DNA of 64,000 nucleotides. It comes from a virus (taxonomy: Duplodnaviria; Caudoviricetes). The notes under the pieces are model-generated. The model did no database searches. It had not been told where the DNA came from and saw only the letters and a list, made by a program, of their open reading frames with translations. The stretch lies in IMG/VR virus record IMGVR_UViG_3300036827_000034, positions 35 to 64,034 of that record; one strand, 5' to 3'. This document shows, one piece after another, positions 5,516 through 38,149 of the stretch. Position 1 is the first letter of the stretch, and every line of letters begins with the position of its first letter. Both the position numbers and the translations under genes were made by a program.

Positions 5516-5922
5516 TTGAGACCAGACCTCTCCAACTGCTGGATCAACGGCGCGTGTGGTGCAATACGCTTTATCACCTTGAACTCAGCTTCGACACCAG
5601 CCTTGTTCTGATCTTCCGCATAGAGCTTCAACAAGTTCGTATGTAGGTCAGCCGCATACGGGTTATCCCGCAACGCTGCCTGCACTCGTTCGATCGCCAT
5701 ATTCCGCGTTACCTGTGTCGGCTCCGTTGCGACGTAGAGATACGCCGGTCCATTCCTGATCCGATACTCGAGCGGGAACAGCCGGTTTGCCATTTCCAGT
5801 GCTGGCATCGCGGCGGCAAAGTTGCCGGACATTTGCCAGCCCCATGCGTATTGCTGTTCGGCAAGCATTGATGTCATCGCGTAGAACAGGCCCGCCGCCA
5901 GCGCAGCGCCCCGCCACCACAG
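5512..5922 (-). CDS. TM + TPR-like protein in +1 frame overlapping ligase 1 (start uncertain, possibly frameshift product)
   Basis: LWWRGAALAAGLFY...AEQQYA...ALRDNPYAADLHTNL; paralogue at 38638-39102; stop overlaps endolysin ATG. Confidence 0.65.
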   Translation of the reverse strand: MWWRGAALAAGLFYAMTSMLAEQQYAWGWQMSGNFAAAMPALEMANRLFPLEYRIRNGPAYLYVATEPTQVTRNMAIERVQAALRDNPYAADLHTNLLKLYAEDQNKAGVEAEFKVIKRIAPHAPLIQQLERSGLK

Positions 5923-6988
5923 CGAAGCAGGCGGCAGTCGCGGGCATGTGAAGCGGGAAGCCAAACATGGTCTGCACCATGAAGCCGAGGAAGATTGCTT
6001 TCTCCGTCGCCATGGTAGAGCGCCAAACACTGACCGCAAATGCCACAGGGATGATCGCACCGATGCCCATTTCGTAAATGAACTCCAGGAGATCGTTGTG
6101 GGCATGTTCCGGCCTTGCGTAGAGCGTGTCGATGCGATGTCCAATATCAGGGAAGGTTACATAGTACGAACCCAAGCCCCTGCCAAACCAAGTGAAGCCA
6201 TCGACGGTATCGTGCCAGATCGAAATCCGCTCGACCACGCTGCCGTCGAAATGGATCATGTAATAAATCCCGACGATCGGCGCGGTCACAGCGCCTACCC
6301 CGACCAGCAAACGCGGATAGCGACCGATCATCATCAAGCCCAGTACCGCAATGACCGATACCAGCGCACCGCGCGAATAGAGGAATGTGCCAGCGAGGTT
6401 GATCGGAGTAGCCAGCAACGCGGCCCAATTCACCGAAGACCAAACAGCGTTGCCGATCGGGATGATTTCAGTTGGCAAGAGATATTGGCAGATATTCAAG
6501 GCTACCAATGGAACGAACCACCACAGCCGCTCGTAAACCAATCCGATCAGCACGAGTGCAGCCAGTTCGGCGCCCATGTCCTTGTTCATGAACAAGCCGC
6601 CCGGCATCGAGACTTGCGGCAATCCTGTCCAACCGTAAATCTGCATATAGACGATGACGCTGTTGATCGTCAGACCGCACGCCGCGCCGATCAGCAAGCC
6701 GCGAATGGATTTCAATTCAGCCGCGACCATGAACGCGAAGAACGTGAACAGCAGCTTGAGAAAGTTCGCCCACCACTCAACCGGCACTTCGGTCCAGAAC
6801 AGAGACACCGCGCCGTAGCCGAGCATCAGCATGAACAGCACATGCGATGTCGTCATGCGGATGCGAATGCGAAACAAGGCAATCGCCCCGACAATCGCAA
6901 TAAATCCCCAACGCGGCGTGGTCGCAGACGACGCTATGAAAGGCCACATCAAGACTGTGAGGATGAAAGCGACGAAGCCGCCTATCAT
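5663..6988 (-). CDS. O-antigen ligase / O-oligosaccharyltransferase family membrane protein (copy 1)
   Basis: Multi-TM; GLFMNKD, SRGA, ERISIW, FGRGLGSY, HAHNDLLEFIYEMGIG (Wzy_C/WaaL motifs). Confidence 0.88.
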   Translation of the reverse strand: MIGGFVAFILTVLMWPFIASSATTPRWGFIAIVGAIALFRIRIRMTTSHVLFMLMLGYGAVSLFWTEVPVEWWANFLKLLFTFFAFMVAAELKSIRGLLIGAACGLTINSVIVYMQIYGWTGLPQVSMPGGLFMNKDMGAELAALVLIGLVYERLWWFVPLVALNICQYLLPTEIIPIGNAVWSSVNWAALLATPINLAGTFLYSRGALVSVIAVLGLMMIGRYPRLLVGVGAVTAPIVGIYYMIHFDGSVVERISIWHDTVDGFTWFGRGLGSYYVTFPDIGHRIDTLYARPEHAHNDLLEFIYEMGIGAIIPVAFAVSVWRSTMATEKAIFLGFMVQTMFGFPLHMPATAACFAVVAGRCAGGGPVLRDDINACRTAIRMGLANVRQLCRRDASTGNGKPAVPARVSDQEWTGVSLRRNGADTGNAEYGDRTSAGSVAG

Positions 6989-8886
6989 TTACCGAATACG
7001 GTCCAGTTCGTACCGTTATAGAAGCCGAGAACCTTATTCGTGCCACCTCCGATGAAGCCACCGCCCCATGCGTTCGTGCTGGCGTCAGTGAAATACATTA
7101 TGGCACCTGCGGCAGTCGGGGTTGTGCCGCGATTCGCATAGATCACACCGCTAATTGCCATGGTGACGGCACTGATTGATGTGGCCGAAATTCCACCAGC
7201 TACAACTTTCTTGACGGCATCAATGCCGCCAGCAGTGGTGATGGACCCGCCAGAGGCACCATTGGCATCTGTGGTATCTGTAAGCGCAACGCGACCTGCC
7301 AAGAAATTATAATTGGCACCGATTTGAAGCTGGGCAGTTGGTTGTTTTTGTATGAGGAACGGAATTTGAGCACTGGTCTGGTCGGTAATATAGAAACTGC
7401 CGCCAGATACTATGTTCACGCGCCATGCTTGGCCGTTGTTCAAAAATCGAAGTTGGTTGCCTTCGGTCGCGCTGATCGTTACGGCGGTCAAATTGGTATT
7501 GATGGCGCTCCAAGTATTTGCACCATCAAGGAACGGAAGATTATGACCACTGGTGCTGATATTCGATGCACTGATCGCGCCGCTTGAATCGACCGAGAAT
7601 CCAGACGCGGAGCCATCAGATTTGACCAGTTTGAACGTGCTGGTCGTATTAGTAAGACCAAGATTCGTCACATCGGAAGCATCGACGCCGAGCAAGAATT
7701 TTCCAACTCCGGCACTATTCTTTGAGTGCAGATTGGTATTGTTCGGGACTGTTGCCCATACGCCTGACGTGAAGGCAAAAGAGCTAAGATCAAATCCGGT
7801 AATCAGTGTTCCGGTCGCAGTGGTATTCTTTTCCAAGAGGCTGTTTATCGCTTGCGTGCCTTCCGGCGATACAAAAAGAAATGATGCGTGCGAACCGGAA
7901 TTGAATTTCCCAATCCGCATCACATTGGATTTCATTACGGTCGGGAATGTTGCGCCGCCCGAAATTCCGTCAGCGATATAGCCTTCGTTGAAGGATATGT
8001 TGCCATTCGATGACCCGGTGTTGGTCATCTGTCCTTGGAAACATCCACTCTCGTTGTAACCAACCGCGCCGACCGCGCTCAGTTGAGCCGTGCAAGTGAA
8101 ATTCTGTAGCGAGCCGTCCCCGGTCTTGGTGGCAACCACCCACAAACCGGAAAGAACTGAATTGCTAGTGTTAGGCGATATGACCGAGCCATCGCCGGTC
8201 CAGTTCAGGACATATTCCCAAGCAGGGATGACTTGTCCTGATCCGATGGCCTTCGTATCCGTATGCTGCGCGATAAAACTAGCGCGCGTATTGGTGAAGT
8301 TTGTCGGGGAATTGGTTTTCTGAATTTCAAGTCTGGAACCGGAAATGTCCTGGCCGAAAGTCATTCCCATAATTTGATTGACGGAAGAAATCGTCCACGA
8401 GTGCGGGGCCGTCCAATTATAGGGCGTTGTCAAATCAAACTTCGGTGCCGCATCGCTCCGCATCGCAGTGATTGCAGAACCATTGATCGCGCTTGAGGTG
8501 ATGACTGCTGTTGGATTGGCGAAGCCTGCCATGCCGCCGAGCGCATAAGTGATGCCAGCAATTCGCGCGAATATCCCTGTGCTATCGGTCCACACATCGC
8601 CATTGACTGGCGTGATCGGCGCTGTGCCTTGCGGGATTTGCAATCCAGCGGTCGGTGTGGTCGTGGCTGCGGTATAAACCTTGGCTGAGTACGATTGAAC
8701 GCCTGACCATGTGATAGCAGGCGTGAGCGTATTTCCTACAGAACCAGAAATCGGCTTCGGAGGGGCAGCAATCGCATTCGCATTGCCGCAGAACGTACCG
8801 GGCTGAAACACGCCGCTGCATTGTGCTGACGCTACCGAACACAGCGCCAGCAACCCAAGCAGCGAAGCGATCAGCCTCCGCATCAT
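6985..8886 (-). CDS. Tail fibre/spike-like protein with signal peptide
   Basis: MMRRLIASLLGLLALCSVASA-QC; G/S/T-rich beta sequence; C-terminal YNGTNWTV. Confidence 0.65.
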   Translation of the reverse strand: MMRRLIASLLGLLALCSVASAQCSGVFQPGTFCGNANAIAAPPKPISGSVGNTLTPAITWSGVQSYSAKVYTAATTTPTAGLQIPQGTAPITPVNGDVWTDSTGIFARIAGITYALGGMAGFANPTAVITSSAINGSAITAMRSDAAPKFDLTTPYNWTAPHSWTISSVNQIMGMTFGQDISGSRLEIQKTNSPTNFTNTRASFIAQHTDTKAIGSGQVIPAWEYVLNWTGDGSVISPNTSNSVLSGLWVVATKTGDGSLQNFTCTAQLSAVGAVGYNESGCFQGQMTNTGSSNGNISFNEGYIADGISGGATFPTVMKSNVMRIGKFNSGSHASFLFVSPEGTQAINSLLEKNTTATGTLITGFDLSSFAFTSGVWATVPNNTNLHSKNSAGVGKFLLGVDASDVTNLGLTNTTSTFKLVKSDGSASGFSVDSSGAISASNISTSGHNLPFLDGANTWSAINTNLTAVTISATEGNQLRFLNNGQAWRVNIVSGGSFYITDQTSAQIPFLIQKQPTAQLQIGANYNFLAGRVALTDTTDANGASGGSITTAGGIDAVKKVVAGGISATSISAVTMAISGVIYANRGTTPTAAGAIMYFTDASTNAWGGGFIGGGTNKVLGFYNGTNWTVFGK

Positions 8887-21128: not shown

Positions 21129-21596
21129 TCAATCGGCGCCGTTTGCGCTCTGCTTGAGAACGAAGAAACCGATCTTCAGCGTCCCATTGAACACCGAAGA
21201 ACTGGTCTCGGTTGAGTTGCCGACCACGATAACCACCGAACCCGCTCCCGGCGTGATGGTCTTGATGTATGGCTGACCGACCGTCGAAGTACCATACTGC
21301 ACATTGGCAAACACAAGGTCAGCCGCTGCAACCATGTTGTTCGTCAGGGTCAGCGTATATGGCGAACCAGCCGCAGTCGCCAACGCCTCAGTAGTGATGA
21401 TGCCGGAACCTGCCGCATTGAGCGTAGCCGCACCCGCTGTAGCCGTCGCCGTATTGTTCTTCTGGATCAGAACGCCAGTGCGAAAGCCCTGTTGCTGACT
21501 GGCCTTGTTCGTCCCGGTTGTGCCGGGCTGGATGGCGTAGGCAGCGGTGGCGATCAGTGCCAAGGCACTAGCCGCGATCAATAGTTTCCGCATCAT
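21129..21596 (-). CDS. Decoration-like protein with signal peptide (paralogue A)
   Basis: MMRKLLIAASALALIATAAYA; ATLN..SGIITTE.L...YTLTLTN...FNGTLKI.FF. Confidence 0.75.
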   Translation of the reverse strand: MMRKLLIAASALALIATAAYAIQPGTTGTNKASQQQGFRTGVLIQKNNTATATAGAATLNAAGSGIITTEALATAAGSPYTLTLTNNMVAAADLVFANVQYGTSTVGQPYIKTITPGAGSVVIVVGNSTETSSSVFNGTLKIGFFVLKQSANGAD

Positions 21597-21626
21597 GTCA
21601 GCGCCTCGCCGTTATCCGCCGTCAGA

Positions 21627-22040
21627 TCAGGGCCGGACAGTGAAGAAATTGATCTTCAGCGTACCGTTGAAGCTAGTGCTGGTGTTCTGCCGAACGCTGA
21701 TGACCACCTGACCAGCCGTGGTCGTGACCTGTTCGACGTTCGGCGCACCAGTCGTTGCCGTGCCAAGCCCGACAGTCGCCAGAACGATGTCGCCCACCGT
21801 CGCCGCCGAATTGGTCAGCGTCAGCGTGTAGAGCGAGTTGGTCGAGGATGACAGCGTTTCCGTGGTGATGACGCCGCATTTGTTATTGAGCGTGGCCGTC
21901 GCCGCCGTGCCATTGCCCGCCGCAGTGGTCGTGGTGCAGAGGCCCCGCAGATAGCCGTCCAGGGCAATGTCCGCTGCGAATGTCGGCTGCACAAAGGCCA
22001 GCGCCGCCAGAAAAGCCAGACCGAGAATTTTCTTGAGCAT
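21627..22040 (-). CDS. Decoration-like protein with signal peptide (paralogue B)
   Basis: MLKKILGLAFLAALAFVQPTFA; ATLN..CGVITTE.L...YTLTLTN...FNGTLKI.FF. Confidence 0.75.
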   Translation of the reverse strand: MLKKILGLAFLAALAFVQPTFAADIALDGYLRGLCTTTTAAGNGTAATATLNNKCGVITTETLSSSTNSLYTLTLTNSAATVGDIVLATVGLGTATTGAPNVEQVTTTAGQVVISVRQNTSTSFNGTLKINFFTVRP

Positions 22041-25138: not shown

Positions 25139-25472
25139 GTGTCGATTTCCTCTTTACGAAGTCCCCGATATTGCTCCAAGTCATCGCATCCGGGACACCC
25201 TCGCAAATATCGCCTGATCGGGCATGTCTGCACTCGATCCAGCCTAGCGGGGGATCATCCTCCGACGATGAAACGGTCAAATCGAACTCTCCAAATGATA
25301 AAACAACTTGTTCCCGAAACTTGCCGAGCGGATTTCTACGCCCATTGGGCAAATCGGGCAATGGTTCGGCCTGATGGATATTCGTTCCGTCCCAACTGAA
25401 TAGGCCGGATAGATGGTTCTCGAAAAATGATCGCGCGTTGCCGAGCAATGCTCTGCGGGCTGTGGTGGTCAA
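25131..25472 (-). CDS. Hypothetical protein
   Basis: TTGA overlap with portal stop. Confidence 0.55.
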   Translation of the reverse strand: MTTTARRALLGNARSFFENHLSGLFSWDGTNIHQAEPLPDLPNGRRNPLGKFREQVVLSFGEFDLTVSSSEDDPPLGWIECRHARSGDICEGVPDAMTWSNIGDFVKRKSTHG

Positions 25473-27838
25473 GGTTGCGGTGCCGTAACTGGAGTCCGTT
25501 CAATCTGTCTCGCAGCGGCATGATCCTTGGTGGCGGCTGCAACATCTCGATGTGCTTTCGTCACTGCGCCTAAATGGTCGATCAATTGGCTGGTTCGATC
25601 CGTGGTCATGCCGTGGACGGCTTGAAGGTGTTTGGTGGCCGCGTCATGGGCCTGTGCATCCGAATTGGCAAGGTCGGTGTGGACGCCTGCCAATTCCCGA
25701 ACCGTTTGGGCATGAGTATGGGCGGTATCGGCGGCGATCTTGTCGCCTTGGGCTTGGGTCTGCCGAGCCTTGATCGCCAATTCCATTGCCTTCAAATGTG
25801 CAGCCAAGCCTTCGGAATCGTTCTTAGACAGAAGATTGCGCGCCATAGCGATGTCGTAAACCGCGGTGGATTGCGTAGCCCCAGCCTTGGCATCGTTCAT
25901 TTCGGCAATCGACTGATCCTTGTTGATCGAAGCCACCGCGCCGGCAATCTGCAACTGCCTGTTTTCCTGCTGCTCTTGCTGGTTCTTCGGATCGTTCTGG
26001 CCCTGCTTGATGAAAGCCTTGACCGCTTCGACCACGCGCGATGGCAATGGCGAGTATTCAAGCAGCATCGCGAATACTTCGGGATTGCTCATCAACTGGT
26101 CTTTGAAGATCGCGAGCATCGGCTGAATAATCGCCCAATTCGCTTCCTTCTGGTTCGGTGAAGTCGGCGTGTCGTCAACGATCACATCGTATTCACCAAC
26201 CGTCTTGTCCTTCGCCAAGGCGACAACCTTCGCCTCGTCATTGCCGACCACGCGAATCAGCCTGCCATCCGATAGGAAGTTCTGGATGAAAAAGAGCCGA
26301 GCGCGTCCGGTCTGTTTGCGGAAACGCCTCAATGAATCGAACAACGTCGCCAGCACCGTCATGCCAGCTTGTTTACGCATCGCCTCGAGGATGCCGGGCT
26401 GGTTCTGGTCCTGCTGGCCGAGTAATTCGAGATTGATACCCGTCACGTCCTTGATCGAGGAAATGGCGAACTGCATCAGCCCCAAATGCCCTTCCACAAC
26501 ACCAGAACCGGGCTTCGGCATGATCTTCGGGTTTGGCCCTGATAGCGCACCATCCGCCGCCCATGAAATCGCATCCGGTTGCGCGTAGCTATCTTCGGCT
26601 TCGCGCTCATCATCGAATGCAGCCCGTTCTGCAATGATGCCGCCCTTCGCCGTGGTGTTCAGTATATGCAGGACTTGGCTCAACCACTTGTTCGCCCATT
26701 GCTGCGGGTCTTTCATCACCGCGACGAGGCCAAACCAAGTGCCCTTCACCGCGTCCAATTCGCCAGTGATGAACTTCCATGTGAATTGTCCCGCTATCGG
26801 GGCAGGCCCAGCAGGACGCAGCATCACGTCCTGCGCTCCAAGGAATGCCTGCTTGTAAATCTTGCGGGTCAGCTTCGCGGCATCGACGCTCATGCCGAGC
26901 ATCTGCATCCGCTTCTCGAAGGTCCGATATTGCTGATCGCTCAGTTCGGCCTTCGAGTTGGTCATTGGATCGGCAACCAGCCAATACGTTTCAAACTCGA
27001 TCCATTGCATCTGGACGATAGTGACTTCGCACTGATCGTCGTAAGGCAAATCCATCGTATTGTTGGTGTCGCGCTTCCATTTCTGTTCCAAAGATTTCTG
27101 TGGATAATCCAGCGGGCCGTCGATTGCCCACACCGCATCAAGCTGCTCGCGGGTGAAGCCGGGGAACATTCGCATCGCATCGCCAAGCGGCATCCGGCGA
27201 ACGCGAGAGAAGCGGCGGCTGTCGGACAGGTTCTTTTTCCGTGCCGTCCGGTCCCAATACATTTCAAGGCACATCACCTGTTCTTCGACGTATAGGCCCA
27301 TCGGGTCGTCATCGAAGGACATGCGGTTTTCGCAAACGCCTAGCCCCGTAGTGCAGCATTGATCGAACGCTTGGCTTTCCTCGTCCTCGCCATCGCAGCT
27401 ATCCGCCATCCATTTCGATGCAGCGGAAAGCACTTCATTGATCGCTGTATCTTCGGAGTTTCGGGGAATGAAATGAATCTCGTGCCGCCCGTTGATCTCC
27501 ATGCCAGCCACGGCTTTTAGGATCGTCAGGACGCGGTTGAAAACGATGTGCGGGCGCTGCTGGTTGTCGAGGGTGGATTTGTCCTCTGGCGTCCATTGTT
27601 CGCCGGCTCGGAACTGGAACATGAGGCGAGCCTGTGCCCGCCAATCCCGCGAGAAATCGGCATCCGATTTCCACCAGCCGGACAGGACTGTGAATTGACG
27701 AGTAGGGGAAAGCTTCGATGGCGGCAGAAGGTCGATGTTCAATGCCTGATCGGCGGCCTTATCCAAATCGTCAGGATTAGCGGCAGGATCAATGGCGATC
27801 CCATCGCTCGGCTTGGCATCGACCATTTCCAAGGCCAC
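25469..27838 (-). CDS. Portal protein (P22-like)
   Basis: F..GEQW, RPHIVFNR, AVAGME, YWD..AR...LSD, GLV..MKDPQ...NK, VTGIN..LLG, G.YDVIVD..P. Confidence 0.92.
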   Translation of the reverse strand: MALEMVDAKPSDGIAIDPAANPDDLDKAADQALNIDLLPPSKLSPTRQFTVLSGWWKSDADFSRDWRAQARLMFQFRAGEQWTPEDKSTLDNQQRPHIVFNRVLTILKAVAGMEINGRHEIHFIPRNSEDTAINEVLSAASKWMADSCDGEDEESQAFDQCCTTGLGVCENRMSFDDDPMGLYVEEQVMCLEMYWDRTARKKNLSDSRRFSRVRRMPLGDAMRMFPGFTREQLDAVWAIDGPLDYPQKSLEQKWKRDTNNTMDLPYDDQCEVTIVQMQWIEFETYWLVADPMTNSKAELSDQQYRTFEKRMQMLGMSVDAAKLTRKIYKQAFLGAQDVMLRPAGPAPIAGQFTWKFITGELDAVKGTWFGLVAVMKDPQQWANKWLSQVLHILNTTAKGGIIAERAAFDDEREAEDSYAQPDAISWAADGALSGPNPKIMPKPGSGVVEGHLGLMQFAISSIKDVTGINLELLGQQDQNQPGILEAMRKQAGMTVLATLFDSLRRFRKQTGRARLFFIQNFLSDGRLIRVVGNDEAKVVALAKDKTVGEYDVIVDDTPTSPNQKEANWAIIQPMLAIFKDQLMSNPEVFAMLLEYSPLPSRVVEAVKAFIKQGQNDPKNQQEQQENRQLQIAGAVASINKDQSIAEMNDAKAGATQSTAVYDIAMARNLLSKNDSEGLAAHLKAMELAIKARQTQAQGDKIAADTAHTHAQTVRELAGVHTDLANSDAQAHDAATKHLQAVHGMTTDRTSQLIDHLGAVTKAHRDVAAATKDHAAARQIERTPVTAPQP

Positions 27839-27855
27839 GGCAGAAACCCCTCAGA

Positions 27856-28425
27856 TCAGGCGCGATTGCCCCGCAGGCGACGTTTCGGTTGATGCGTTTC
27901 TTCTTCGGATTGTCTTTTTGCGCGCTGCATTTCATCATTCATTTTCTGTAGCTTGTCATTGTTCGGAAGGAGTATCGCGTCCACTTTTCCTTCAAGCGCG
28001 GTTACTCGGCCATCCTGAATATCCAGCAGGGATAGTACCGATTCGCCTTCCGGCATCTGGAAATCGCCGCAGACCATGGCCGTCAGCACATCGAGCTTGT
28101 TACGCAATTGCGCATTTTCCTCGCGCAATGCGGCAATCTCATCCGTCACCTGATCCGGCAAATATGACCAGCCCCGATCACCAGCCACATGCTCTGGGAC
28201 ACTCGGCTGCGTAATCATGTCCGCAGCCTCGAACATCACCATCAACTCAAGCCGCCGATTGTGTTCATCGACCGCAAGAACGATAGCCGGAATTTCGGTG
28301 CGCCCCCGCCGTATCTCGCTCGGACGCGGATGGTAAACCACAGGCTGTCCGATACGAGGCAATGGGCGCCGATCATCAATCTGGCGTGCGGCTTCTGGAT
28401 TTACGGTCGCAAGAAGGTGGCCCAT
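27856..28425 (-). CDS. Hypothetical protein
   Basis: P.IGQ.V.Y...PAIV; coiled-coil C-terminus. Confidence 0.65.
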   Translation of the reverse strand: MGHLLATVNPEAARQIDDRRPLPRIGQPVVYHPRPSEIRRGRTEIPAIVLAVDEHNRRLELMVMFEAADMITQPSVPEHVAGDRGWSYLPDQVTDEIAALREENAQLRNKLDVLTAMVCGDFQMPEGESVLSLLDIQDGRVTALEGKVDAILLPNNDKLQKMNDEMQRAKRQSEEETHQPKRRLRGNRA

Positions 28426-28552
28426 GAATTGTCCTTTGGTTATTTGCGGCAGGATACGCGAAATTAAGCCGCTAGGCTATTGCCGCTTTGTTCGACGCTC
28501 ATGTTCTACCTCGTAAACCAGAACGCAACGAGGAATGCGGGGAGGGATTGGG

Positions 28553-30226
28553 TCATGGGGCCAACGCCACCACCGTCCATTTAGTCCCGTTTGAACTGAA
28601 TCGACCAATAACGCGCGTTGACCCGCTACCAGCAGCTACGATGTCCGCGCCGAACGTCGAAGTGTTGCCGTCGGTGAACAACCACAAATCTCCTTCCAGG
28701 CAATAGGCATCAGCGGGCCGGTTGGCGACGGTGCTGTTTGGTGTAAAGTTGGTGCCATCATCAGATTGAATAGCAACGGTGCTTACCGGATACGAAAGCA
28801 ACCCCGTACCGGGTGCCCCATGAGAATTTGATAGCCCAACGCTTCTGAACCTAATTGCGTAGGAACCAGAAAGAACGCCAGAATCAAAGGTAATGCAATT
28901 GCCGCTGAAATCGCCGTCGAAGTTGGTATTCTGAACTTGGATTTGATTGACCGAGCCAGTTGCGTGCAATCCGTTCACGCTGCTATTCGCTGCCGTGCCA
29001 TGGACTGAAAGCGTATCGAGTGTGATTGAACCAGAACCATGGATGACAATTGCATCGCCAGAATTGGCCTCGAATGTCGTATGATCGACCTTGACCTTGC
29101 TCGCCCCGGATAGATCAATACCGTTACCATTGATTTCAACCCGTCCACCATGTAGCCCAAGGCCGACACAGCCGCTCGGTTCGGCTAGGATGGCGGTGCC
29201 GAAGCCGGTAACATCAAAGCCAAATACCGCGCTCTCCCCGCCCATCCAGAAACCGACACCGATGCCACCCGCACCATTGCCATTACAGTTGTAGAGTTTG
29301 ACCGTGCAATCCTGCGCGCCGTAGTAGGCGTAATAACCTGCCATATCACAATCGTAGAGACCGCCACCATAGTAGGCGATCATCGAGACGCCGCCGCCGC
29401 GTGGCGCATAGGAGCCGCCGCTAACGTAGGAACCCGGATCAACATCAAGGTGATATTGAAACGATGAGGCGCCATCAAAGTAGCAGCCGACGAGCCCGTT
29501 GTAGCCGCTCGGACTAACGCTTGCGATATTCATCAACCTCGACTGCCCAACCGTGTAGCCGTGCGGAGCAGATAGTGTGACGGTTACGCCGGGCTGACCA
29601 TTTAAGTTGCCGCCAGTAATACTGGCCGACCATGATGCGCCATTGATGGTGGTGATCGCAGAAGCCAGTGTTGATTTAGTATTGTTGAACTTGATGCCGC
29701 GAATAGCGCGGCTGCCACCTGCGGAACCAGTGTTCCGCAGCACCTTGCGAAAAATGAAATCGTCCATGCTGGCAGTGAACACCGTGCCGTTTCCCGCGCC
29801 TTCCAAAATAAAAGTGCCATTGCCACCAAGAGCATCGACGTTGATGCCCTCCGTGAATTTATAGGTTCCGGCAGGCGCAACGATCCTGCCTTTACCCGAA
29901 GTCATCGCTGAGTTCAGCGCCGCCGAGCAATCGTTGGTGCCGGTGTTGTCCGCGCCGTATTCGAGGATGTTGGCATAATCGGCCCAGCGATCAGGGTCGG
30001 TCCGGTTAGCTGATCCGCCTGTTGCTGGATAGGCGAACGTCGTAAATGGAACATCGGTCGCATGAGCTCCGGTGGCCGCAAGCATCCCTGCTGCTGAAAG
30101 CCCGCCAAGCAGGGCGCGACGGCTTAGGCTTCGTGCGACTGGAACATACGCCTCGCCAGTCCGCAGATGATGCTCGAAAGCGCGGCGGCTGAACTCGGCC
30201 CAATATGCTTTGCGGCGATCCTGCAT
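28553..30226 (-). CDS. Parallel beta-helix (pectate-lyase-3-like) tailspike/depolymerase with Tat-like signal
   Basis: SRRALLGGLSAAGMLAATGAHA; NILEYGADNTGTNDCSAALNSA, PAGTY; beta-helix repeats. Confidence 0.75.
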   Translation of the reverse strand: MQDRRKAYWAEFSRRAFEHHLRTGEAYVPVARSLSRRALLGGLSAAGMLAATGAHATDVPFTTFAYPATGGSANRTDPDRWADYANILEYGADNTGTNDCSAALNSAMTSGKGRIVAPAGTYKFTEGINVDALGGNGTFILEGAGNGTVFTASMDDFIFRKVLRNTGSAGGSRAIRGIKFNNTKSTLASAITTINGASWSASITGGNLNGQPGVTVTLSAPHGYTVGQSRLMNIASVSPSGYNGLVGCYFDGASSFQYHLDVDPGSYVSGGSYAPRGGGVSMIAYYGGGLYDCDMAGYYAYYGAQDCTVKLYNCNGNGAGGIGVGFWMGGESAVFGFDVTGFGTAILAEPSGCVGLGLHGGRVEINGNGIDLSGASKVKVDHTTFEANSGDAIVIHGSGSITLDTLSVHGTAANSSVNGLHATGSVNQIQVQNTNFDGDFSGNCITFDSGVLSGSYAIRFRSVGLSNSHGAPGTGLLSYPVSTVAIQSDDGTNFTPNSTVANRPADAYCLEGDLWLFTDGNTSTFGADIVAAGSGSTRVIGRFSSNGTKWTVVALAP

Positions 30227-30376
30227 TTAATGAGCCAGTAGTTTGTTGCCGCTGCCATCGATCAGTTGATTGCTACTGCCGTCAACAAGAAACAAAGAAC
30301 CGAACACGCTACCGTGCCAAAATGCATAGGCTGGCACAGCGAGGCTGAGCAGAATTGCAACGAGGACAATCTTCAT
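30227..30376 (-). CDS. 49-aa secreted protein
   Basis: MKIVLVAILLSLAVPAYA-FWHG...LVDGSSNQLIDGSGNKLL; fills the gap exactly; not in ORF track. Confidence 0.7.
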   Translation of the reverse strand: MKIVLVAILLSLAVPAYAFWHGSVFGSLFLVDGSSNQLIDGSGNKLLAH

Positions 30377-31032
30377 GCGCCCCAGCCCCAGACAAAGTAT
30401 GCCTGTAAAAGCGTGGCGTTGGTGCCACCATCGCTATCGACAAATCGAAGATCGACGATGTTGTCAGCGGCGGTCCCGGAATTAAAATGGAAGTTCATAA
30501 CAAATTTGGTATAATTATTTCCAGCCGCTGTTGCCGCAAATCCAGCGTCAATGACACCTGCGCCCCCAGTAGAAGTGCTCCCTATTGCGCCAGCCCCTGA
30601 TGATATGTCCATCCAATACTGCACGATGTCTGCGCCAGATGCTGCACTCCCGACAATGGCAACTTCGGCCCAAACTGGAACCGCTTGAGTTAAAATATAT
30701 ACAGTAAGGCTATAGTGCGTCCCCGCCGCCATCGTAATTGGAATAGTGGTGCGGAATGCAGCAAATCCCGTGGCAGCACTGGATTGGATTGAGCTTGCAG
30801 TGTTGGTGCTATCGGGAGCAAGCGACGTGTTATTCTGGAAAACTGCATTCAGCCCGGACCACGACGCATCACCAAAATTATTTGGTGCGGTAAGATGAAG
30901 AACAGTTGGCGCTACTGTGCCACCCCCAAACCCGCCCACCCCCGTTGTCAGCAAATTGCTCCGCGCCGTCTGCGTCAGGCAGAGCAGTCCGATCCAGAAT
31001 AGAGCGAGCGAGAAGGCGAGGGTGCGGCGCAT
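30373..31032 (-). CDS. Secreted carbohydrate-binding-like spike protein
   Basis: Signal peptide, LLTTGVGG, F..ASW, APDST.TA, ends VWG. Confidence 0.65.
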   Translation of the reverse strand: MRRTLAFSLALFWIGLLCLTQTARSNLLTTGVGGFGGGTVAPTVLHLTAPNNFGDASWSGLNAVFQNNTSLAPDSTNTASSIQSSAATGFAAFRTTIPITMAAGTHYSLTVYILTQAVPVWAEVAIVGSAASGADIVQYWMDISSGAGAIGSTSTGGAGVIDAGFAATAAGNNYTKFVMNFHFNSGTAADNIVDLRFVDSDGGTNATLLQAYFVWGWGA

Positions 31033-32192
31033 TACTTATAGTCGGCGTTGATGATGAAGTTGTTCGCTGATGCGCTTTGAATATCGCTCGATATGATGTT
31101 GACGGTAAGGCACCACGCGATGCCGCTAGAGAATTGCGCATCAAGCACGGTCGCATTGTTGCCCGCGCCGTTCGCCGCAGTCGATGCGACCGGAATGATG
31201 ATCTGCTTCTTCACCGGATCGACGCCGCAGTTAGGATTGCGGTTGAGGTCGTAGAATTTCAGCCATGCAGGCGACGAACTGATAGTGCTAGTCTGCACCG
31301 CATGAAGGATGCCAGCGGCACCTTTGATGACGCCAAATCCTTGCGGCCCGACCAGCATCGCGAACGGCGACCAGCCGCCCGATGACACCGCGCTGATGCC
31401 GACCGTGCCGATGGCGAGATTGCCTGCCGGGATAGGAGAATTGACCGAACTGTTGACGGTGTTGATAGCGGCCAGCACCGCATCGGAATTGATCTCGCGG
31501 ACACTGCCGGAAACCGTCACGGCAGAAGCATTATCGACCGACACCGAAAGCTGATTCGATGCATTGACGTTGGCACCGCGGGTATTTCCTGCGGCGTCCA
31601 TGATGACGTTGCGCAAGCGGCCCTTGCTGTCGGCCTGCAATGCAAATGTCTGGGCGCTAACCGGGGAAATCTCAGTCGAATTATAGATTGCTCCCGCGAT
31701 CAGCGAATGGGCCGGGGCCGATCCGACACCAATACCCGCAAGCCCCCATGTCGAGATCGTGGTCGGATCGACAGTAAAGGCGCCTGATTGTGACACAGGC
31801 TGGGCACCTGTAGGCGACACCACCAAGGCACCAGCAGCGGTGACGGTGGCGGAATTTCCGCCTTGGTTGATGGTCGAGAGCCATGGCGTCGAGTTTGGCG
31901 TATTGCCGGGCTGTACCGTCCAAGTCCCAGACTGCGCCGCGCTGCCAGACACGATTGCCGCACCGCTTGAATTGACGGTCAGGCAGTTTGCCGCTGCGCT
32001 GCTGTCGCAGATGCCAGTTCTTGAGACGAAATTGCCCCCACCTTCGGTGATGATGCTGAATGTCCGGTTTACGCCGCTCGCATCCTTGGTGATGATCGTT
32101 CCCGAACCTGCCCATGCTTGCCCGAACGGCGCTAGAACAAGCGCGATGGCGAGTAAGACCCGACGCATGGTCATGGCGGTTTTCCTTTTCAT
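31032..32192 (-). CDS. Secreted S/T/A/G-rich structural protein
   Basis: RRVLLAIALVLAPFGQAWA; QSGTWTVQPGNTPN.TPW; WLKFYD...FSSGI. Confidence 0.7.
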   Translation of the reverse strand: MKRKTAMTMRRVLLAIALVLAPFGQAWAGSGTIITKDASGVNRTFSIITEGGGNFVSRTGICDSSAAANCLTVNSSGAAIVSGSAAQSGTWTVQPGNTPNSTPWLSTINQGGNSATVTAAGALVVSPTGAQPVSQSGAFTVDPTTISTWGLAGIGVGSAPAHSLIAGAIYNSTEISPVSAQTFALQADSKGRLRNVIMDAAGNTRGANVNASNQLSVSVDNASAVTVSGSVREINSDAVLAAINTVNSSVNSPIPAGNLAIGTVGISAVSSGGWSPFAMLVGPQGFGVIKGAAGILHAVQTSTISSSPAWLKFYDLNRNPNCGVDPVKKQIIIPVASTAANGAGNNATVLDAQFSSGIAWCLTVNIISSDIQSASANNFIINADYK

Positions 32193-32386
32193 CGCAAGAT
32201 CACCAGATATTGCGTGGTATTGCAGCCATCGGAAAAGTCGAGTTGTCCTGCATTGCATGGGGGGCCAGAAGGCATAGCCGCACCACCTGAATTGCCCGCG
32301 CCGGTCGTGGTCATCTGCGCATGTGACATTGTTGCGGCTACCGCCAGCAACAGCGCAGAAAGAATGAAGAACCTAGCGAAATGCAT
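32189..32386 (-). CDS. Small secreted protein
   Basis: MHFARFFILSALLLAVAATMSHA-QMTTTGAG...LDFSDGCN. Confidence 0.65.
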   Translation of the reverse strand: MHFARFFILSALLLAVAATMSHAQMTTTGAGNSGGAAMPSGPPCNAGQLDFSDGCNTTQYLVILR

Positions 32387-32786
32387 AGTAAACAATCGCC
32401 TGCGCTGCATTGCCGGCGCTCGCGTTGATGCAGAGATTATTGCCCAAAGGCACGAATAGCCCACGGAATACAGGGCTAGGATCGACAAGGCCAGTTTGTG
32501 TGGTGAACTGGAAAGCTGGGGTGATTGCGGTAGTCCCCGTCCCACAAGTCGCGTCAGACCCATAGACCAATTTGAGATTGACCGTGCTGGCGGCATAGAA
32601 AGTATAGCCGCAAATGTAGATATTTGCGTTCGATCTGCCCGTCACCAATAGTGTCGAGCCATTGGTGGAATTGTCATAAAGCTTGGAGAGATTGCAGGCA
32701 ACGCCGGGGGTTTGGGCCTGCGTAGTCGGCGGCCAGAGCGCCAATGCCAGCAATAACCCTAGCAGTAACGCAATCCGGCGAATCAT
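32373..32786 (-). CDS. Secreted Cys-containing protein
   Basis: MIRRIALLLGLLLALALWPPTTQA; IYICG, CGTGT, LCI. Confidence 0.75.
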   Translation of the reverse strand: MIRRIALLLGLLLALALWPPTTQAQTPGVACNLSKLYDNSTNGSTLLVTGRSNANIYICGYTFYAASTVNLKLVYGSDATCGTGTTAITPAFQFTTQTGLVDPSPVFRGLFVPLGNNLCINASAGNAAQAIVYYAFR

Positions 32787-32797
32787 GGCGGTAGCTC

Positions 32798-33040
32798 CTA
32801 CGGGGGCTTGCGAGCAAGCAAACGCTGTGCTGTTTCGCGCGCTGCCGAAAGGACATCTCCGCCAGGACGGACCTGATCCGATGCCACCTCAAATTGCGTG
32901 CCGTCTTGGCTTGTACCACTAAATTTCAGTCTTTGAAACTGGATCGTGTCCTTCGTCTCATAGCTCAGATACGCCTTTTGCGCCGAGAACGCCGGTTCGG
33001 CCACTTCGTTGAAGGCTTGCTTGAGTTCAGCGACCCCCAA
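32798..33040 (-). CDS. Hypothetical protein
   Basis: GGAGG RBS + TTG. Confidence 0.55.
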   Translation of the reverse strand: MGVAELKQAFNEVAEPAFSAQKAYLSYETKDTIQFQRLKFSGTSQDGTQFEVASDQVRPGGDVLSAARETAQRLLARKPP

Positions 33041-33326
33041 GATCGCCTCCGTGTGGTTTGAAATTCGGGTGGTCCGTCCGCGCTGCCCATTCGGCTAATT
33101 TCTTGCGAACCTGCATCCGTTGGCATGGACCGCATTCGCAATCATGACCGAGCATCCAAGTATTCGTTCCAACGGGATTTCCGGTTGTCTCGCAGAGTTC
33201 AACTTCCTGCCGCTCATGCCGATTCATGGCTCGATAACCCCGAAAATGATGCCAAAGAGAACCAGCCAGAACATCAGCATGAACCCGCCCACTATCGCGA
33301 AGATCAAGACGGTTCGCTGCTGACAT
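33027..33326 (-). CDS. Hypothetical Cys-containing protein (start uncertain)
   Basis: NPVGTNTW...C.C..CQ. Confidence 0.45.
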   Translation of the reverse strand: MSAANRLDLRDSGRVHADVLAGSLWHHFRGYRAMNRHERQEVELCETTGNPVGTNTWMLGHDCECGPCQRMQVRKKLAEWAARTDHPNFKPHGGDLGGR

Positions 33327-33330
33327 TCCG

Positions 33331-34923
33331 TCATGCTGCCCATCCTGATGATTTAGGCTTGTCGCGGAAGCGCCTATCGTCGTTTCGGTCGCGTTCCGGT
33401 TTATCCGGTTTCAGGCCCATTGCCAATTGCTGGACGGCATCGCTTCCGTGGCTTGCCAAATCATGGATCGGGTCCGACGAAAACACCCCCAATTGCTTGT
33501 TCCACCGCTTGCGATAGTTTTCCAATCGCGAGAGGCCAACGCCACAGTTATCCGAATCAATCCATGCCAAGTTAAGCAGTCGCCGCCCAGCCTCGATCGC
33601 ATCTGCCTTGACCGCCACCCGCGGCACAACCTCGAACTTAACGCCTAAGCCATCCGCGACTTGCTTCCGGCTTTGCGCATTGTTCGCCCAATCCCGGTTA
33701 TCCAGATCGTGTGGGCCATAGTGCTTGCCATAGACGAAGCTGCGTTCCTTCCGCTTCTCGTCAACCACACCGCAGGCCGCTTGCAGGCTCGAGCCTTCTT
33801 CCTCCCAATAGTCGATCAGCCTGTGCCGAACGCCATCGGTCTGATGAAACCAGATCGCGGTGCAGTCCTCGCCAATGTCCCATGCCGTGTTGACGGGGCG
33901 CGTCGGATCGTGCGGCACCATCTGGCCGATACGGCCCTCGCGGCGAGCCTTGTTGATCTCGATTTTCCAATAGGCACCCTCAACGCTGCTATAAAAAAGC
34001 TCCCCGATCTCTGACGGGTATTCGGACTTCATCGAGTCCGGACCAAGCTCCTCATATTTCTTGGCGTACCAAGCGCGCTGGTCGTGATCGAGCGCGATGT
34101 GGTGCTTCTGCCGCAGGATGTCGAAATACTCGCGCAAGTCATGCGGCACGACGACGAGGTTATTCGGCAGGCGGTATTCCTGTTTGATCCACCAGCCATA
34201 GAAATTGAGTTTGAAATCCAGGCTTGTGAGCGGTTGCTTTCTATCCGCTGCTTGGCGTGACCGCTGCACCATGTCGTAAAATAGCCCAGCCGTGCCATGC
34301 GCCGTGCTTTCGACCCATACCCGACCGGATGCCGGAACGGCTTGAACCGCGCCAGTAATGATTTCCTTTGCTGTTTCTGGTGAATCGACGCTGATCTTGC
34401 CGAACTCGCTGACATGCAAGAGGCTGGGAGTTCCACCACGGTAGGACGTACCAACCGTAACCGTCGATCCGTTTGACCAAGTAAGCTCCTTTTCATTGGC
34501 CTTCACGAGCGGGCGGGCATGACGCAAATCCGCTCCCAATTCTCCCGGCATATTGTCGTAGGCGAATTTAATCATCGTCAGCTTATCAACCGCATCATCA
34601 AGCGAGCGATCGACCACGCCGGCAGTCGTGCCAGAATGGAATAGGCACTCGTCTAGGATGTCTATTGCGATGAAGGTTGAGAAACCTAACTTGCGGGACT
34701 TGGCGATGACGTTGCGGCACCATGCAGTCTCACAAAACGCCCGCTGCGCCTCGTTCCGCACGAACCTGATCTTGTCGCCGTTCTCAGCCCTGATCTGGTA
34801 GAGGCTATCGAGCCGCCATTCGCGATCCGCTAGATGCTCGCGGAGCTTCTGCCCTTGTGGGCTGAGTTTCTGGCGTTCGATGTCGGCGGGATCAGGCATT
34901 CTTGGTGAGTGTCCATCGAACAT
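33331..34923 (-). CDS. terL: Terminase large subunit
   Basis: WRL..LY.I, KSRKLGFST (Walker A), LHVSEFG (Walker B), ESTA.G, AWDIG.D, PHD, H..SHGSDA. Confidence 0.95.
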   Translation of the reverse strand: MFDGHSPRMPDPADIERQKLSPQGQKLREHLADREWRLDSLYQIRAENGDKIRFVRNEAQRAFCETAWCRNVIAKSRKLGFSTFIAIDILDECLFHSGTTAGVVDRSLDDAVDKLTMIKFAYDNMPGELGADLRHARPLVKANEKELTWSNGSTVTVGTSYRGGTPSLLHVSEFGKISVDSPETAKEIITGAVQAVPASGRVWVESTAHGTAGLFYDMVQRSRQAADRKQPLTSLDFKLNFYGWWIKQEYRLPNNLVVVPHDLREYFDILRQKHHIALDHDQRAWYAKKYEELGPDSMKSEYPSEIGELFYSSVEGAYWKIEINKARREGRIGQMVPHDPTRPVNTAWDIGEDCTAIWFHQTDGVRHRLIDYWEEEGSSLQAACGVVDEKRKERSFVYGKHYGPHDLDNRDWANNAQSRKQVADGLGVKFEVVPRVAVKADAIEAGRRLLNLAWIDSDNCGVGLSRLENYRKRWNKQLGVFSSDPIHDLASHGSDAVQQLAMGLKPDKPERDRNDDRRFRDKPKSSGWAA

Positions 34924-35164
34924 AGAGACGATGGAAGAAATTCAGAACGCGCCAACTGTTCCGGCCCTTGTCCTCTGGCAACCATAGTAAGCTGTGTCCA
35001 TGCTCGCCTCGACAATAGGAACAAGTGCAATCTCTAGTGTGACGTTCGATGATGACGTGAGCGCCTGCAATCTCAGCGAGAAGAACTTGCCAATGTGTTT
35101 TGTTCGGCCATTGATCGCCAATAACAAACCGTTGATACCAAGGCGCGGTCGATGGAAAGTTCAT
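34892..35164 (-). CDS. Hypothetical protein
   Basis: ATGA overlap; C.C..C. Confidence 0.5.
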   Translation of the reverse strand: MNFPSTAPWYQRFVIGDQWPNKTHWQVLLAEIAGAHVIIERHTRDCTCSYCRGEHGHSLLWLPEDKGRNSWRVLNFFHRLYVRWTLTKNA

Positions 35165-35388: not shown

Positions 35389-35389
35389 G

Positions 35390-35946: not shown

Positions 35947-35955
35947 TGCCGCCTC

Positions 35956-36774: not shown

Positions 36775-36909
36775 CGCAATCCACTCCTGAATTTATGTGC
36801 GAACCGATGTCCTTGAACGGTGCATACGATCCAAACCCCTTGGTGGCCGCAGGACACCTTTCGTTATCGACCCTCGCACTGGCCGACCAGATGACCCACC
36901 GTGGGGTTG

Positions 36910-38136: not shown

Positions 38137-38149
38137 GGCTTCCTCCTGT

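Follow-up and report, generated by a model that had tools for sequence, protein, structure and literature searches.

The phage genome analysed here carries, between its terminase large subunit gene (terL) and its portal gene, an accessory cassette of exported proteins of virion-appendage domain families, set within the late gene run. We favour, at a probability of about 0.42 for the whole chain of steps, the reading that these proteins would fold in the periplasm and dock as appendages on finished particles at lysis. The window, a stretch of 64,000 nucleotides, represents a complete phage genome of 64,034 bp, and all coordinates below refer to genes on its minus strand. The gap between terL and the portal gene is 5.5 kb here, whereas the two genes are directly adjacent in two distant relatives. 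It encodes five proteins with Sec-type leaders (137, 65, 386, 219, and 49 aa); a sixth, a beta-helix protein of 557 aa, has a leader of the twin-arginine kind.

On the upstream flank, terL (33331..34923) matched PHROG phrog_2 (9.6e-21), as well as phrog_2472 and phrog_26724, and has homologues with 59% and 46% identity in the relatives G1 and G2, respectively. Two small leaderless genes (32798..33326), encoding 99 aa (33027–33326) and 80 aa (32798–33040), gave no match in the family search, and a homologue of the 80-aa protein (42.5%) was located at the equivalent position in G1. On the downstream flank, a leaderless 189-aa protein (27856..28425) with only weak coiled-coil-type Pfam matches lies just before the portal gene (25469..27838; Pfam P22_portal, 5.3e-101), a position conserved in G1 and G2. 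Starts and stops within the block overlap or abut, and the genes are translationally coupled inside the late minus-strand run; the 49-aa ORF, for example, has an ATGA overlap with the upstream gene, and the start of the next gene abuts it. Neither promoter-like sites (3 in the block versus 6.8 ± 2.5 in shuffled sequence) nor terminator-like sites (8 versus 10.8 ± 4.1) were in excess, and the G+C content of the block equals that of the genome. In the closest relative, the 137-aa gene is the sole one retained, indicating that the rest of the block is accessory, and G1 and G2 both lack five of the six genes, indicating that the block is dispensable for particle building.

Sec leaders were called with a heuristic that looks for a positive n-region, an uncharged hydrophobic run of 8 or more residues, and small residues at −3/−1. 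The earlier note had placed such leaders on five consecutive ORFs of the block, which was borne out after the gene starts were corrected. The cut was predicted after residue 24 in the 137-aa protein (32373..32786). The next ORF starts at the ATG at 32386 and encodes a 65-aa peptide with two cysteines (32189..32386), with a predicted cut after residue 23 (the heuristic gave 21 on the frame from 32380, two codons downstream, which was converted). In the ORF ending at 31032, the leader begins at the internal ATG 32192, giving a 386-aa fibre-like protein (31032..32192) with a predicted cut after residue 28. For the lectin-like 219-aa protein (30373..31032) and the 49-aa ORF (30227..30376; leader score 45.8), cuts were predicted after residues 25 and 18, respectively; the claim is limited for these two in that the four homologues of the former have no clear leader and a homologue search of the collected DNA found none for the latter. 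The 557-aa protein (28553..30226) did not pass the Sec heuristic, as expected of a Tat leader; its 56-aa leader carries S-R-R-A-L-L-G, then a G/A/S-rich stretch and the predicted cut A-H-A|T at residue 56. The twin-arginine-like leader proposed earlier thus held, and the RR pair is kept in the sole homologue that has its N-terminus.

Across the whole genome, at least 10 exported proteins were counted, plus two polytopic Wzy_C membrane proteins. The previous count of nine signal-peptide proteins was right about the leaders themselves, including those on the two post-capsid paralogues and the tail-fibre-slot protein, and too low in total, having missed the protein at 3560–4297. Chance controls were near zero: 0.25 leader-like proteins per 107 in shuffled proteomes, 1 of 47 internal segments, and 1 of 27 and 0 of 16 annotated CDS in the relatives RHph_Y1_10 and Mae-JY35, respectively. 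Most mature parts had been described as S/T/G/A-rich and several as containing Cys pairs, and we found an S+T+G+A share of 0.35–0.50 against 0.32 ± 0.08 for the 68 proteins in the window that reach 100 aa. Their cysteine counts were 4, 2, 4, 0, 0, 8, 2, 0, 4, and 2 in the ten exported proteins.

The 137-aa protein, a jelly-roll "knob", has 62 other homologues. A hydrophobic leader was present in 62 of the 63 family members and at 17 of the 18 unique viral loci, although the leader sequence itself is unconserved, which supports export as claimed before. AxA-type cleavage sites followed by Gln occur in most members. Exactly four cysteines were found in 54 of 63, with two cysteine columns invariant and two nearly so, in support of the disulfides that had been proposed. 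The AF2 model (pLDDT 92.5) shows an N-terminal helix and a 9-strand sandwich, and a BFVD search gave 135 matches at E ≤ 1e-3, including cyanophage "virion structural proteins" of ~107 aa. Longer proteins with leaders (up to ~1240 aa) also end in the knob domain, and a knob gene lies between terL and the portal gene in G1, G2, and the fragment L095. Homologues of the 65-aa peptide, which bears a C..LDF..C motif, adjoin knob-domain genes at L088/L090, L083, L093/L094, and L089.

The 386-aa protein consists of a 28-aa leader, a small N-terminal beta domain, a shaft, and a C-terminal beta-sandwich. AF2 confidence was high only at residues 270–386; the low-confidence shaft contains the SGTWTVQPGN motif. 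We found 280 related stretches in viral contigs and 1298 cluster representatives at E ≤ 1e-3, and no Pfam family in any of 26 relatives. Of 14 BLASTP rows, 9 showed similarity to the mature protein starting right after the homologue's own leader. Modules of this fibre also occur within leaderless proteins of up to 2392 aa encoded downstream of the capsid gene (L003 and L071). The 219-aa protein matched the phage head spike fiber domain model NCBIfam NF048003 at E 2.2e-7 and 31.6 bits, below the cut-off of 36, and its look-alikes in the Atlas, to be taken as a lead only, were viral CBM_4_9 and ConA-like proteins. The 557-aa protein, a predicted right-handed beta-helix of the pectate-lyase type, matched Pfam PF12708 (29.5 bits, cut-off 27) and Beta_helix (1.3e-3), with weak PHROG matches to pre-neck appendage and tailspike families. 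Just two homologues are known: P0002 has an RRK motif and a hydrophobic leader, and P0003 begins exactly at the predicted mature end. Judged from sequence families and predicted folds, the mature parts belong to virion-appendage families: fibre modules in mosaic arrangement, knobs of jelly-roll fold, a lectin resembling the GTA head-spike fibre (below threshold), and a beta-helix of the pectate-lyase type. This supports the kinship to spikes, fibres, and decorations put forward earlier.

Leader genes stand at three fixed places, between terL and the portal gene, behind the capsid gene, and in the tail-fibre slot, in the window, G1, and G2; L095 has them at the first two and ends short of the third. 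In other phages, leaderless homologues occupy those structural slots. Downstream of the capsid gene, two paralogous exported proteins (21129..22040) of 137 aa (21627–22040, its start corrected from 22100) and 155 aa (21129–21596) share 50% identity over 84 aa. The same position holds a leader-bearing homologue in G1, other leader-bearing proteins in G2 and L095, and a leaderless relative of the phrog_18251 family in L003. In the Atlas, the pair resembled leaderless viral clusters of 114–121 aa with TM up to 0.91 (a lead only). The fibre slot, downstream of a leaderless collar fibre and a 134-aa gene, encodes a 633-aa exported protein (6985..8886; leader score 43.4). Its counterpart in G1 is a protein of 1120 aa that has a leader and, at its C-terminus, a Peptidase_S74 chaperone domain; G2 has three proteins with leaders in this slot. 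The segment of ~90 residues after the leader is common to G1 and G2 and weakly like that of the window, and the rest differs; as read from the alignments, this pattern is that of a docking module with a variable tip, the layout of exchangeable fibres.

Several further genes concern the envelope. A polytopic membrane protein of the Wzy_C family (O-antigen ligase/polymerase family; 5663..6988; Pfam PF04932, 35.3 bits, cut-off 31.7) adjoins the fibre-slot gene, and its homologues adjoin leader-gene clusters in L079 and L094. Glycosylation of the exported proteins, which had also been suggested, is a guess drawn solely from this adjacency here and at the two other loci. The genome encodes two Wzy_C genes in all, a TIGR04372 glycosyltransferase, and a methyltransferase-domain protein. 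The 245-aa exported protein at 3560..4297 has a 19-aa leader and ends in aromatic residues; by sequence features alone it resembles an outer-membrane protein, and the family search gave no match even at E ≤ 1.

Phage particles are built in the cytoplasm, and export signals on parts of the host-recognition type imply folding outside it. In the scheme that we favour, the block genes would probably be expressed together with the packaging and head genes, as suggested by the overlapping or abutting starts and stops and by promoter and terminator signals no more frequent than in shuffled sequence. Five proteins would then cross the inner membrane unfolded via Sec and the beta-helix enzyme already folded via Tat, and all would lose their leaders to signal peptidase; we consider this export step very likely. 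Folding and disulfide formation would follow in the periplasm, yielding glycan binders (the knob with its two-cysteine partner, the sandwich-tipped fibre, and the head-spike-fibre-like lectin) and a glycan cutter (the beta-helix protein), which we regard as likely. Breakage of the envelope by holin, endolysin, and spanin would bring the appendages into contact with finished particles, on which they would dock, and the post-capsid and fibre-slot leader proteins would take the same route. Docking at lysis would mean that spikes, fibres, and decorations mature outside the cytoplasm.

Docking is favoured by the fixed places of the leader genes, by the post-leader module shared between G1 and G2, and by leader-bearing proteins of the Cellulophaga phage phi18:3 that carry an MS/MS virion annotation. 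However, the block is dispensable for particle building. Beta-helix tailspikes fold well in the cytoplasm, and a Tat leader makes most sense on an enzyme working in the envelope of a still-intact cell. As the phage also encodes the leaderless collar fibre, the exported proteins are not its sole host-recognition gear, and the Wzy_C, glycosyltransferase, and methyltransferase-domain genes point to envelope remodelling. As for a docking partner, a search of 30 late proteins gave no head-spike base family. The literature search found no paper describing phage appendage proteins with export signals.

Of the two destinations offered earlier, addition to virions at lysis has an outside precedent in the phi18:3 proteins, and a phage-encoded cell-surface structure has one in the Bdellovibrio MAT fibres and Pantoea WceF. 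The same observations can be read differently. The main alternative, which we hold to be only slightly less probable, is that the proteins are free glycan tools acting on the envelope rather than parts of the particle, exported late and released at lysis. In the periplasm or at the surface, they would bind and cut host capsule, EPS, or O-antigen; with the glycan receptor stripped or masked, progeny and rival phages would not adsorb to infected cells or debris, and the matrix would also be loosened for dispersal. The accessory status of the block and the further envelope and glycan genes fit this. Every modelled or matched mature domain is of a glycan-binding or glycan-cutting type, the Tat leader implies that a folded enzyme is exported to the envelope of a living cell, and Pantoea WceF and the Bdellovibrio MAT fibres serve as precedents for a Tat-exported tailspike-like hydrolase and for surface display of signal-peptide fibres. 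However, one or two proteins would suffice to mask or destroy a receptor, whereas at least ten are exported here, and the block encodes no route through the outer membrane. The structural slots with their leaderless homologues elsewhere, the shared G1/G2 module, and the phi18:3 annotation speak for particle parts, and in a phmmer search of the whole PDB the beta-helix protein matched no chain, WceF included.

It is unlikely that the genes form a moron set for lysogenic conversion or superinfection exclusion, expressed from a prophage or plasmid-prophage to alter the host surface. Such a set would suit the Wzy_C genes that adjoin genes with leaders in the window, L079, and L094, the outer-membrane-like protein, and the anti-CBASS Acb3 gene and other cargo that interrupt the packaging module; both the window genome and G1 encode a small serine recombinase, and a phage with a knob homologue, Synechococcus phage Yong-M4-211, encodes an integrase. 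However, a search for a tyrosine integrase found none in the window genome or in G1 and G2, and the serine recombinase (211–214 aa) has the size of a resolvase/invertase. Translational coupling within the late run, the lack of excess promoters and terminators, and the genome-like G+C also disagree with it, and knob divergence roughly tracks the core genes (54% identity in G1, where core genes show 59–77%, and 32.5% in G2). That the leaders are start-codon artefacts, uncleaved anchors, or hydrophobic N-termini with another role on proteins staying cytoplasmic is very improbable. Our heuristic is not a trained predictor, the 137-aa and 386-aa family members are automatic gene calls from public collections, and the 219-aa and 49-aa products are limited as noted, but the leader property is conserved, homology starts exactly at predicted cleavage sites, the cysteines are kept, as is the Gln after the cut in most members of the 137-aa family, and the chance controls are near zero, so the export signals look real at the sequence level.

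The block can be set against several known systems. Lambda Lom and Bor are exported phage morons, and seroconverting O-antigen genes occur beside tail-fibre genes. Like the block, morons place signal-peptide or membrane proteins inside late structural operons; they carry a promoter and a terminator of their own and show no kinship to virion parts, whereas the block shows no excess of such signals and is built from appendage-type domains.

Phage phi18:3 (NC_021794) is a cultured podovirus of the Pachyviridae. Its gp085, gp086, and gp087 are labelled virion, structural, and tail proteins "based on experimental MS/MS proteomics analysis" in the GenBank record, an annotation for which purified-virion MS may include co-purifying material. 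Like the window, phi18:3 has large late proteins with Sec-type leader-like N-termini (gp085–087) encoded upstream of terL and the portal gene; unlike it, the phage has a Bacteroidota host, and its record does not comment on leaders. When the GenBank phage collection was searched by tblastn with the 386-aa and 137-aa proteins, this record was not among the matches. In its fold the knob is similar to small virion or cement proteins of phages, with weak PDB fold matches (TM 0.38–0.45). The 219-aa protein, by its below-cut-off domain match, resembles the RcGTA head spike fibre rcc01080, which is lectin-like, binds capsule polysaccharide, and is anchored via residues 2–10 to a spike base (PMC10218006), a base family not found among the window late proteins. 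The main text of that paper mentions a signal peptide 0 times.

Two cellular systems come close in architecture. WceF of Pantoea stewartii, a stewartan hydrolase that forms tailspike-like trimers and has a Tat signal of 28 residues (PMC7949094), is cell-encoded inside an EPS gene cluster, unlike the 557-aa protein, but shares with it the right-handed beta-helix and the twin-arginine leader; WceF is a glycan enzyme, and the 557-aa protein is predicted to be one. The MAT fibres of Bdellovibrio bacteriovorus are cellular, phage-fibre-like trimers with signal peptides, displayed on the predator surface (PMC10769870). The only structural link to them is a weak one: the C-terminal domain of the 386-aa protein matched the tip of Bd2133 at Z 6.9 and rmsd 3.5 over 107 residues, within the noise band. 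They act on glycans outside the cytoplasm, as the phage proteins would, and share with these a mosaic build in which a conserved module directly follows the signal peptide and the tip, either an S74 chaperone domain or a beta-sandwich, is exchangeable (PMC10769870).

Only 34 bases of the virus record, a single contig of 64,034 bp with a completeness rating of 100%, fall outside the window, and nearly all late genes lie on the minus strand. Core genes were identified for terS (45619-46320), terL (33331-34923), a P22-type portal (25469-27838, minus strand), a major capsid protein (22557-23714; Pfam Phage_capsid_3, 6.8e-82, with an N4-gp56 family match above the cut-off), an SU10-type adaptor (20418-21095), ejection proteins, an endolysin and a tail collar fibre (9288-10250). 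The head module is of mixed lineages, its capsid, portal and adaptor being of the N4-gp56 family, P22 type and SU10 type, respectively. Megablast with the terL-to-portal region (25469-34923) returned no match among GenBank phages, none of which is close at the DNA level. The closest portal matches were those of Microcystis phage Mae-JY35 (41.7% identity) and Rhizobium phage RHph_Y1_10 (39.2%), and terL is directly beside the portal gene in both. In the window, this interval holds nine tightly packed genes: two small leaderless genes, six whose products carry an N-terminal export signal (leader) and are 137, 65, 386, 219, 49 and 557 aa long, and then a leaderless 189-aa gene.

The earlier note had described six exported proteins at this place. 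All six N-terminal signals were found, although two gene starts had to be moved: the protein listed at 32189 starts at 32386 and is 65 aa long, and that listed at 31032 starts at 32192 and is 386 aa long. Three further leader-bearing proteins of that note (21129, 21627 and 6985) were confirmed with our own heuristic, and a tenth, absent from its list, was located at 3560-4297. BLASTP revealed no paralogy inside the block, the only pair found being 21129/21627, which lies outside it.

Other parts of the genome were annotated as well. A cargo of ~10.7 kb (34923-45619) splits terS from terL; it includes genes for nucleases of the GIY-YIG and HNH types, small membrane proteins, a TIGR04372 glycosyltransferase (41120-42301), a 552-aa protein with a methyltransferase domain, a second Wzy_C-like protein with a sub-threshold match (38933-40105) and the CBASS inhibitor Acb3 (35956-36774, minus strand; full-length match to Pfam PF25187, 4.1e-64). 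An IS1595-family transposase is encoded at 57398-58417 (minus strand; DDE_Tnp_IS1595, 9.6e-33), and a 467-aa late protein (17326-18729, minus strand) matched ART-PolyVal, the ADP-ribosyltransferase of polyvalent proteins, with 28.4 bits, below the cut-off of 31.2. ARAGORN called a 94-nt tRNA-Glu (25519-25612, plus strand) antisense to the 3' end of the portal gene; the call is doubtful because of its odd length and position.

Sec leaders were scored by a heuristic of our own, not a trained predictor, which required a positively charged n-region, an h-region that is hydrophobic and free of charges, and small residues at positions -3 and -1. Nine proteins, including those with the block's five Sec-type leaders, scored 39-46. 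As controls, 0.25 hits per 107 shuffled proteins and 1 in 47 internal segments were obtained, and the annotated genes of RHph_Y1_10 and Mae-JY35 gave 1/27 and 0/16, respectively. Conservation was assessed by asking that the leader be kept as a property while its sequence drifts, and that homology begin at the cleavage site. In the family of the 137-aa protein, the conserved domain was preceded by a strongly hydrophobic segment in 62 of 63 members, and the lone exception resembles a mis-called start. The leader sequences could not be aligned, whereas the domain was ~50% identical; cleavage falls mostly between AxA and Q, and exactly four cysteines are present in 54 of the 63. Across unique viral loci, the domain was preceded by a leader in 17 of 18, with one unclear. 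For the 386-aa protein, the alignment started at the residue directly after the homologue's own leader in 9 of 14 BLASTP rows; two others began within 6 residues of the leader end, and the remainder comprised one leaderless homologue, one internal match and one ambiguous row. None of the four homologues of the 219-aa protein had a clear leader, and no homologue was found for the 49-aa ORF. For most of the exported proteins, the comparative evidence says that the predicted leaders are genuine.

The sixth leader of the block, that of the 557-aa protein, is of another type. Tat leaders were recognized by an S/T-R-R-x-F-L-K-like motif, a weakly hydrophobic h-region and an AxA site, and this protein begins with S-R-R-A-L-L-G, followed by a weakly hydrophobic G/A/S-rich stretch and A-H-A, with T as the first residue after the site. 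It has two homologues only: P0002 has a D-R-R-K-I-I motif and a hydrophobic leader ending in P-A-I-A before A, and the second begins exactly at the predicted mature end. By these features, the leader is a predicted twin-arginine leader. The mature regions of the exported proteins are S/T/G/A-rich, as the earlier note had said (share of 0.35-0.50 vs 0.32 ± 0.08 for 68 window proteins of at least 100 aa), and the exported set contains 1.10 cysteines per 100 aa, compared with 0.55 for 24 late proteins outside the set. As sequence-based predictions, export and folding in the periplasm are well supported.

The 137-aa protein (32373-32786), hereafter the knob, has 62 homologues in metagenomes. Its AF2 model (pLDDT 92.5) consists of a leader helix and a nine-strand sandwich. 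Comparison with the PDB gave weak matches (TM scores of 0.38-0.45), among them virus protrusions, turrets, cement proteins, CBMs and TNF-like folds. BFVD contained 135 viral models matching at E<=1e-3, including cyanophage 'virion structural proteins' of ~107 aa and the terminal parts of proteins with collagen repeats, and on other viral contigs the knob domain makes up the C-terminal end of leader-bearing proteins as long as ~1240 aa. Among GenBank phages, two Synechococcus phages were matched and no others. One of them, the cultured phage Yong-M4-211, has genes for two leader-bearing proteins, a knob homologue and one of 786 aa, at the distal end of its tail genes; a literature search found no paper on Yong-M4-211 or Ssp-JY42. 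The knob profile, run against 185,579 species genomes, matched only once, in an Acidobacteriota MAG with an uninformative context. The neighbouring 65-aa peptide contains the motif C..LDF..C, and its counterparts adjoin knob-domain genes at the viral loci L088/L090, L083, L093/L094 and L089; the two genes therefore form a conserved pair. At least three of the four neighbours were leader genes at 6 of the 18 unique knob loci. Kinship between the knob and 386-aa families had an hhalign probability of 35%, too weak to claim.

The 386-aa protein, a mosaic, is related to 280 stretches in viral contigs and, at E<=1e-3, to 1298 cluster representatives; all 26 relatives examined lacked a Pfam family, indicating a large and unnamed family. 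By the strict rule, leaders were present in 17 of 75 relatives in viral contigs and in 52 of the best 150 cluster representatives (~80 when counted by eye), and the SGTWTVQPGN module also occurs inside leaderless proteins of up to 2392 aa. tblastn against GenBank phages gave no match. The AF2 model was confident for residues 270-386 only, a C-terminal sandwich with middling fold matches (Z <=7.5) to nucleoplasmin, PBSX XepA, the Bd2133 fibre tip, a cement protein and CBMs.

The 219-aa protein gave a sub-threshold match to NF048003, a GTA/phage head spike fibre domain, over residues 48-216 (E 2.2e-7, 31.6 bits vs a cut-off of 36), and its Atlas look-alikes, a lead only, are viral CBM or ConA-type proteins. 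No spike-base partner was detected among 30 late proteins in an NCBIfam scan, a library that may have no such model. The 557-aa protein is a predicted pectate-lyase-superfamily beta-helix (PF12708, 29.5 bits vs a cut-off of 27; PF13229, 18.9 bits, below its cut-off of 25.9). A phmmer search of all PDB chains gave two spurious matches only (E >=0.1) and no homology to WceF of the WceF/AmsF family, and its apparent resemblance to WceF is one of kind, not of family membership. A Pfam search of 12 proteins at E<=1 added nothing.

The window was compared with G1 (59 kb) and G2 (65.6 kb, bearing terminal repeats), both near-complete relatives, and with the fragment L095. All three have the gene order terL, knob gene, 189-aa-like gene, portal, without the other five genes of the block, and all carry leader-bearing genes downstream of the capsid gene. 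The terL frame of G1 (18076-21612; L099/L100) spans 1178 aa, roughly double the normal size and possibly a sign of an intein, and a separate 620-aa protein of G1 (48397-50259; L101:10397-12259) has intein-splicing, Hint and HNH domains. The window proteins at 21129-22040, encoded downstream of the capsid gene, are paralogues belonging to phrog_18251, a leaderless member of which is found downstream of the capsid gene in contig L003. In the relatives, a further four-cysteine leader-bearing protein of ~127-130 aa (L095:6984-7367 and L096:16829-17221) also lies downstream of the capsid gene and has no window counterpart.

The gene place downstream of the collar fibre and a 134-aa gene, here called the fibre slot, is occupied in the window by a 633-aa leader protein adjoining a Wzy_C gene, in G1 by a 1120-aa leader protein with a terminal Peptidase_S74 chaperone domain, and in G2 by three leader proteins. 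The 633-aa protein has no homologue in G1, G2 or G3. About 90 residues directly after the leader are common to the G1 and G2 proteins, and the window has a short stretch of these only. A weak BLASTP row had suggested a common C-terminal motif, G-[FR]-[YF]-x-x-G-x-x-W, in the 134-, 633- and 557-aa proteins; the strict pattern matched the 134-aa protein only, and the motif was discarded. Runs of leader genes were also found elsewhere, between terS and terL in L042 and between the capsid and tail-tube genes in the T7-like L077.

These positions bear on where the exported proteins go. Leader-bearing genes sit in structural slots, leaderless homologues occupy the same slots in other phages, and the fibre-slot proteins show a layout of docking module plus variable tip, a further point for docking. 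That the proteins dock on particles at lysis has, in our estimate, a little under an even chance. A second reading, to which we assign a probability of roughly 0.4, is broader: this and many other uncultured tailed-phage lineages may build their host-recognition gear (head spikes, decorations, fibres and depolymerase spikes) outside the cytoplasm, the parts crossing by Sec or Tat, forming disulfides and snapping on to DNA-filled particles only during lysis, which would amount to a two-compartment assembly pathway. Sugars would perhaps be added by the adjacent Wzy_C-family enzymes, and pre-assembly in the periplasm would be possible.

Alternatively, the proteins could stay free and act on glycans in the envelope, a tentative reading with a substantial minority chance, set against the structural slots of the leader genes. 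The block is accessory, and a folded beta-helix sent through Tat is best explained if an enzyme must act in an intact envelope. The phage also has two Wzy_C genes, a glycosyltransferase and a methyltransferase-domain protein, and there is precedent in WceF (PMC7949094) and Bdellovibrio MAT fibres (PMC10769870), which function away from any particle.

Expression of the block from a prophage, for conversion or exclusion, is unlikely. Neither the window genome nor G1 or G2 yielded a tyrosine integrase; the gene at 50376-51011 (plus strand) encodes a small, 211-aa serine recombinase (Resolvase, 1.5e-41, with sub-threshold invertase- and XisF-type matches), which has a counterpart in G1. A moron was sought as a unit that has a promoter and a terminator of its own and differs from the genome in base composition. 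Promoter-like sites numbered 3 vs 6.8 ± 2.5 expected from shuffles, with none on the gene strand inside the block, by an E. coli-type consensus that may not be that of the host; terminator-like sites numbered 8 vs 10.8 ± 4.1. The G+C content of the block is 0.55-0.57, the same as that of the whole genome, the starts and stops of its genes overlap or abut, and no stable hairpin is predicted within the 127-nt gap that follows the beta-helix gene (z -0.21). By these measures, the block does not look like an autonomous transcription unit of the moron kind. Finally, that the N-termini are not real export signals is very improbable, the 219-aa protein and the 49-aa ORF being the weak points of the leader case.

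To our knowledge, the accepted view of tailed-phage assembly places the production and joining of all particle parts in the cytoplasm. If the exported proteins belong to the particle, this picture is incomplete, host-range prediction and receptor-binding-protein engineering would have to consider leaders, disulfides and the host export machinery, and cytoplasmic recombinant production of such fibres would fail. If they are free, they represent a widespread unannotated phage strategy in which glycan receptors are stripped or masked from inside the envelope. The protein families are large and unnamed in either case. Our literature search found no paper describing leader-bearing tailed-phage appendages or two-compartment assembly for Caudoviricetes, and the envelope proteins reported in a 2026 preprint on huge phages are other ones, sortase substrates and OMPs.

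Among known systems, the Bdellovibrio MAT superfamily is defined by a signal peptide together with a conserved, beta-rich N-domain of ~130 aa, a stalk made of a trimeric beta-helix and a tip of the S74 or sandwich type. For the 386-aa protein, a leader and a sandwich tip are predicted, and its match to the Bd2133 tip has a Z of 6.9, below the stand-out level. For the docking of exported proteins on particles, one outside precedent comes from the cultured Cellulophaga phage phi18:3, in which gp085-087, encoded upstream of terL and portal, all have leader-like N-termini and are labelled in the record annotation as virion proteins from MS/MS.
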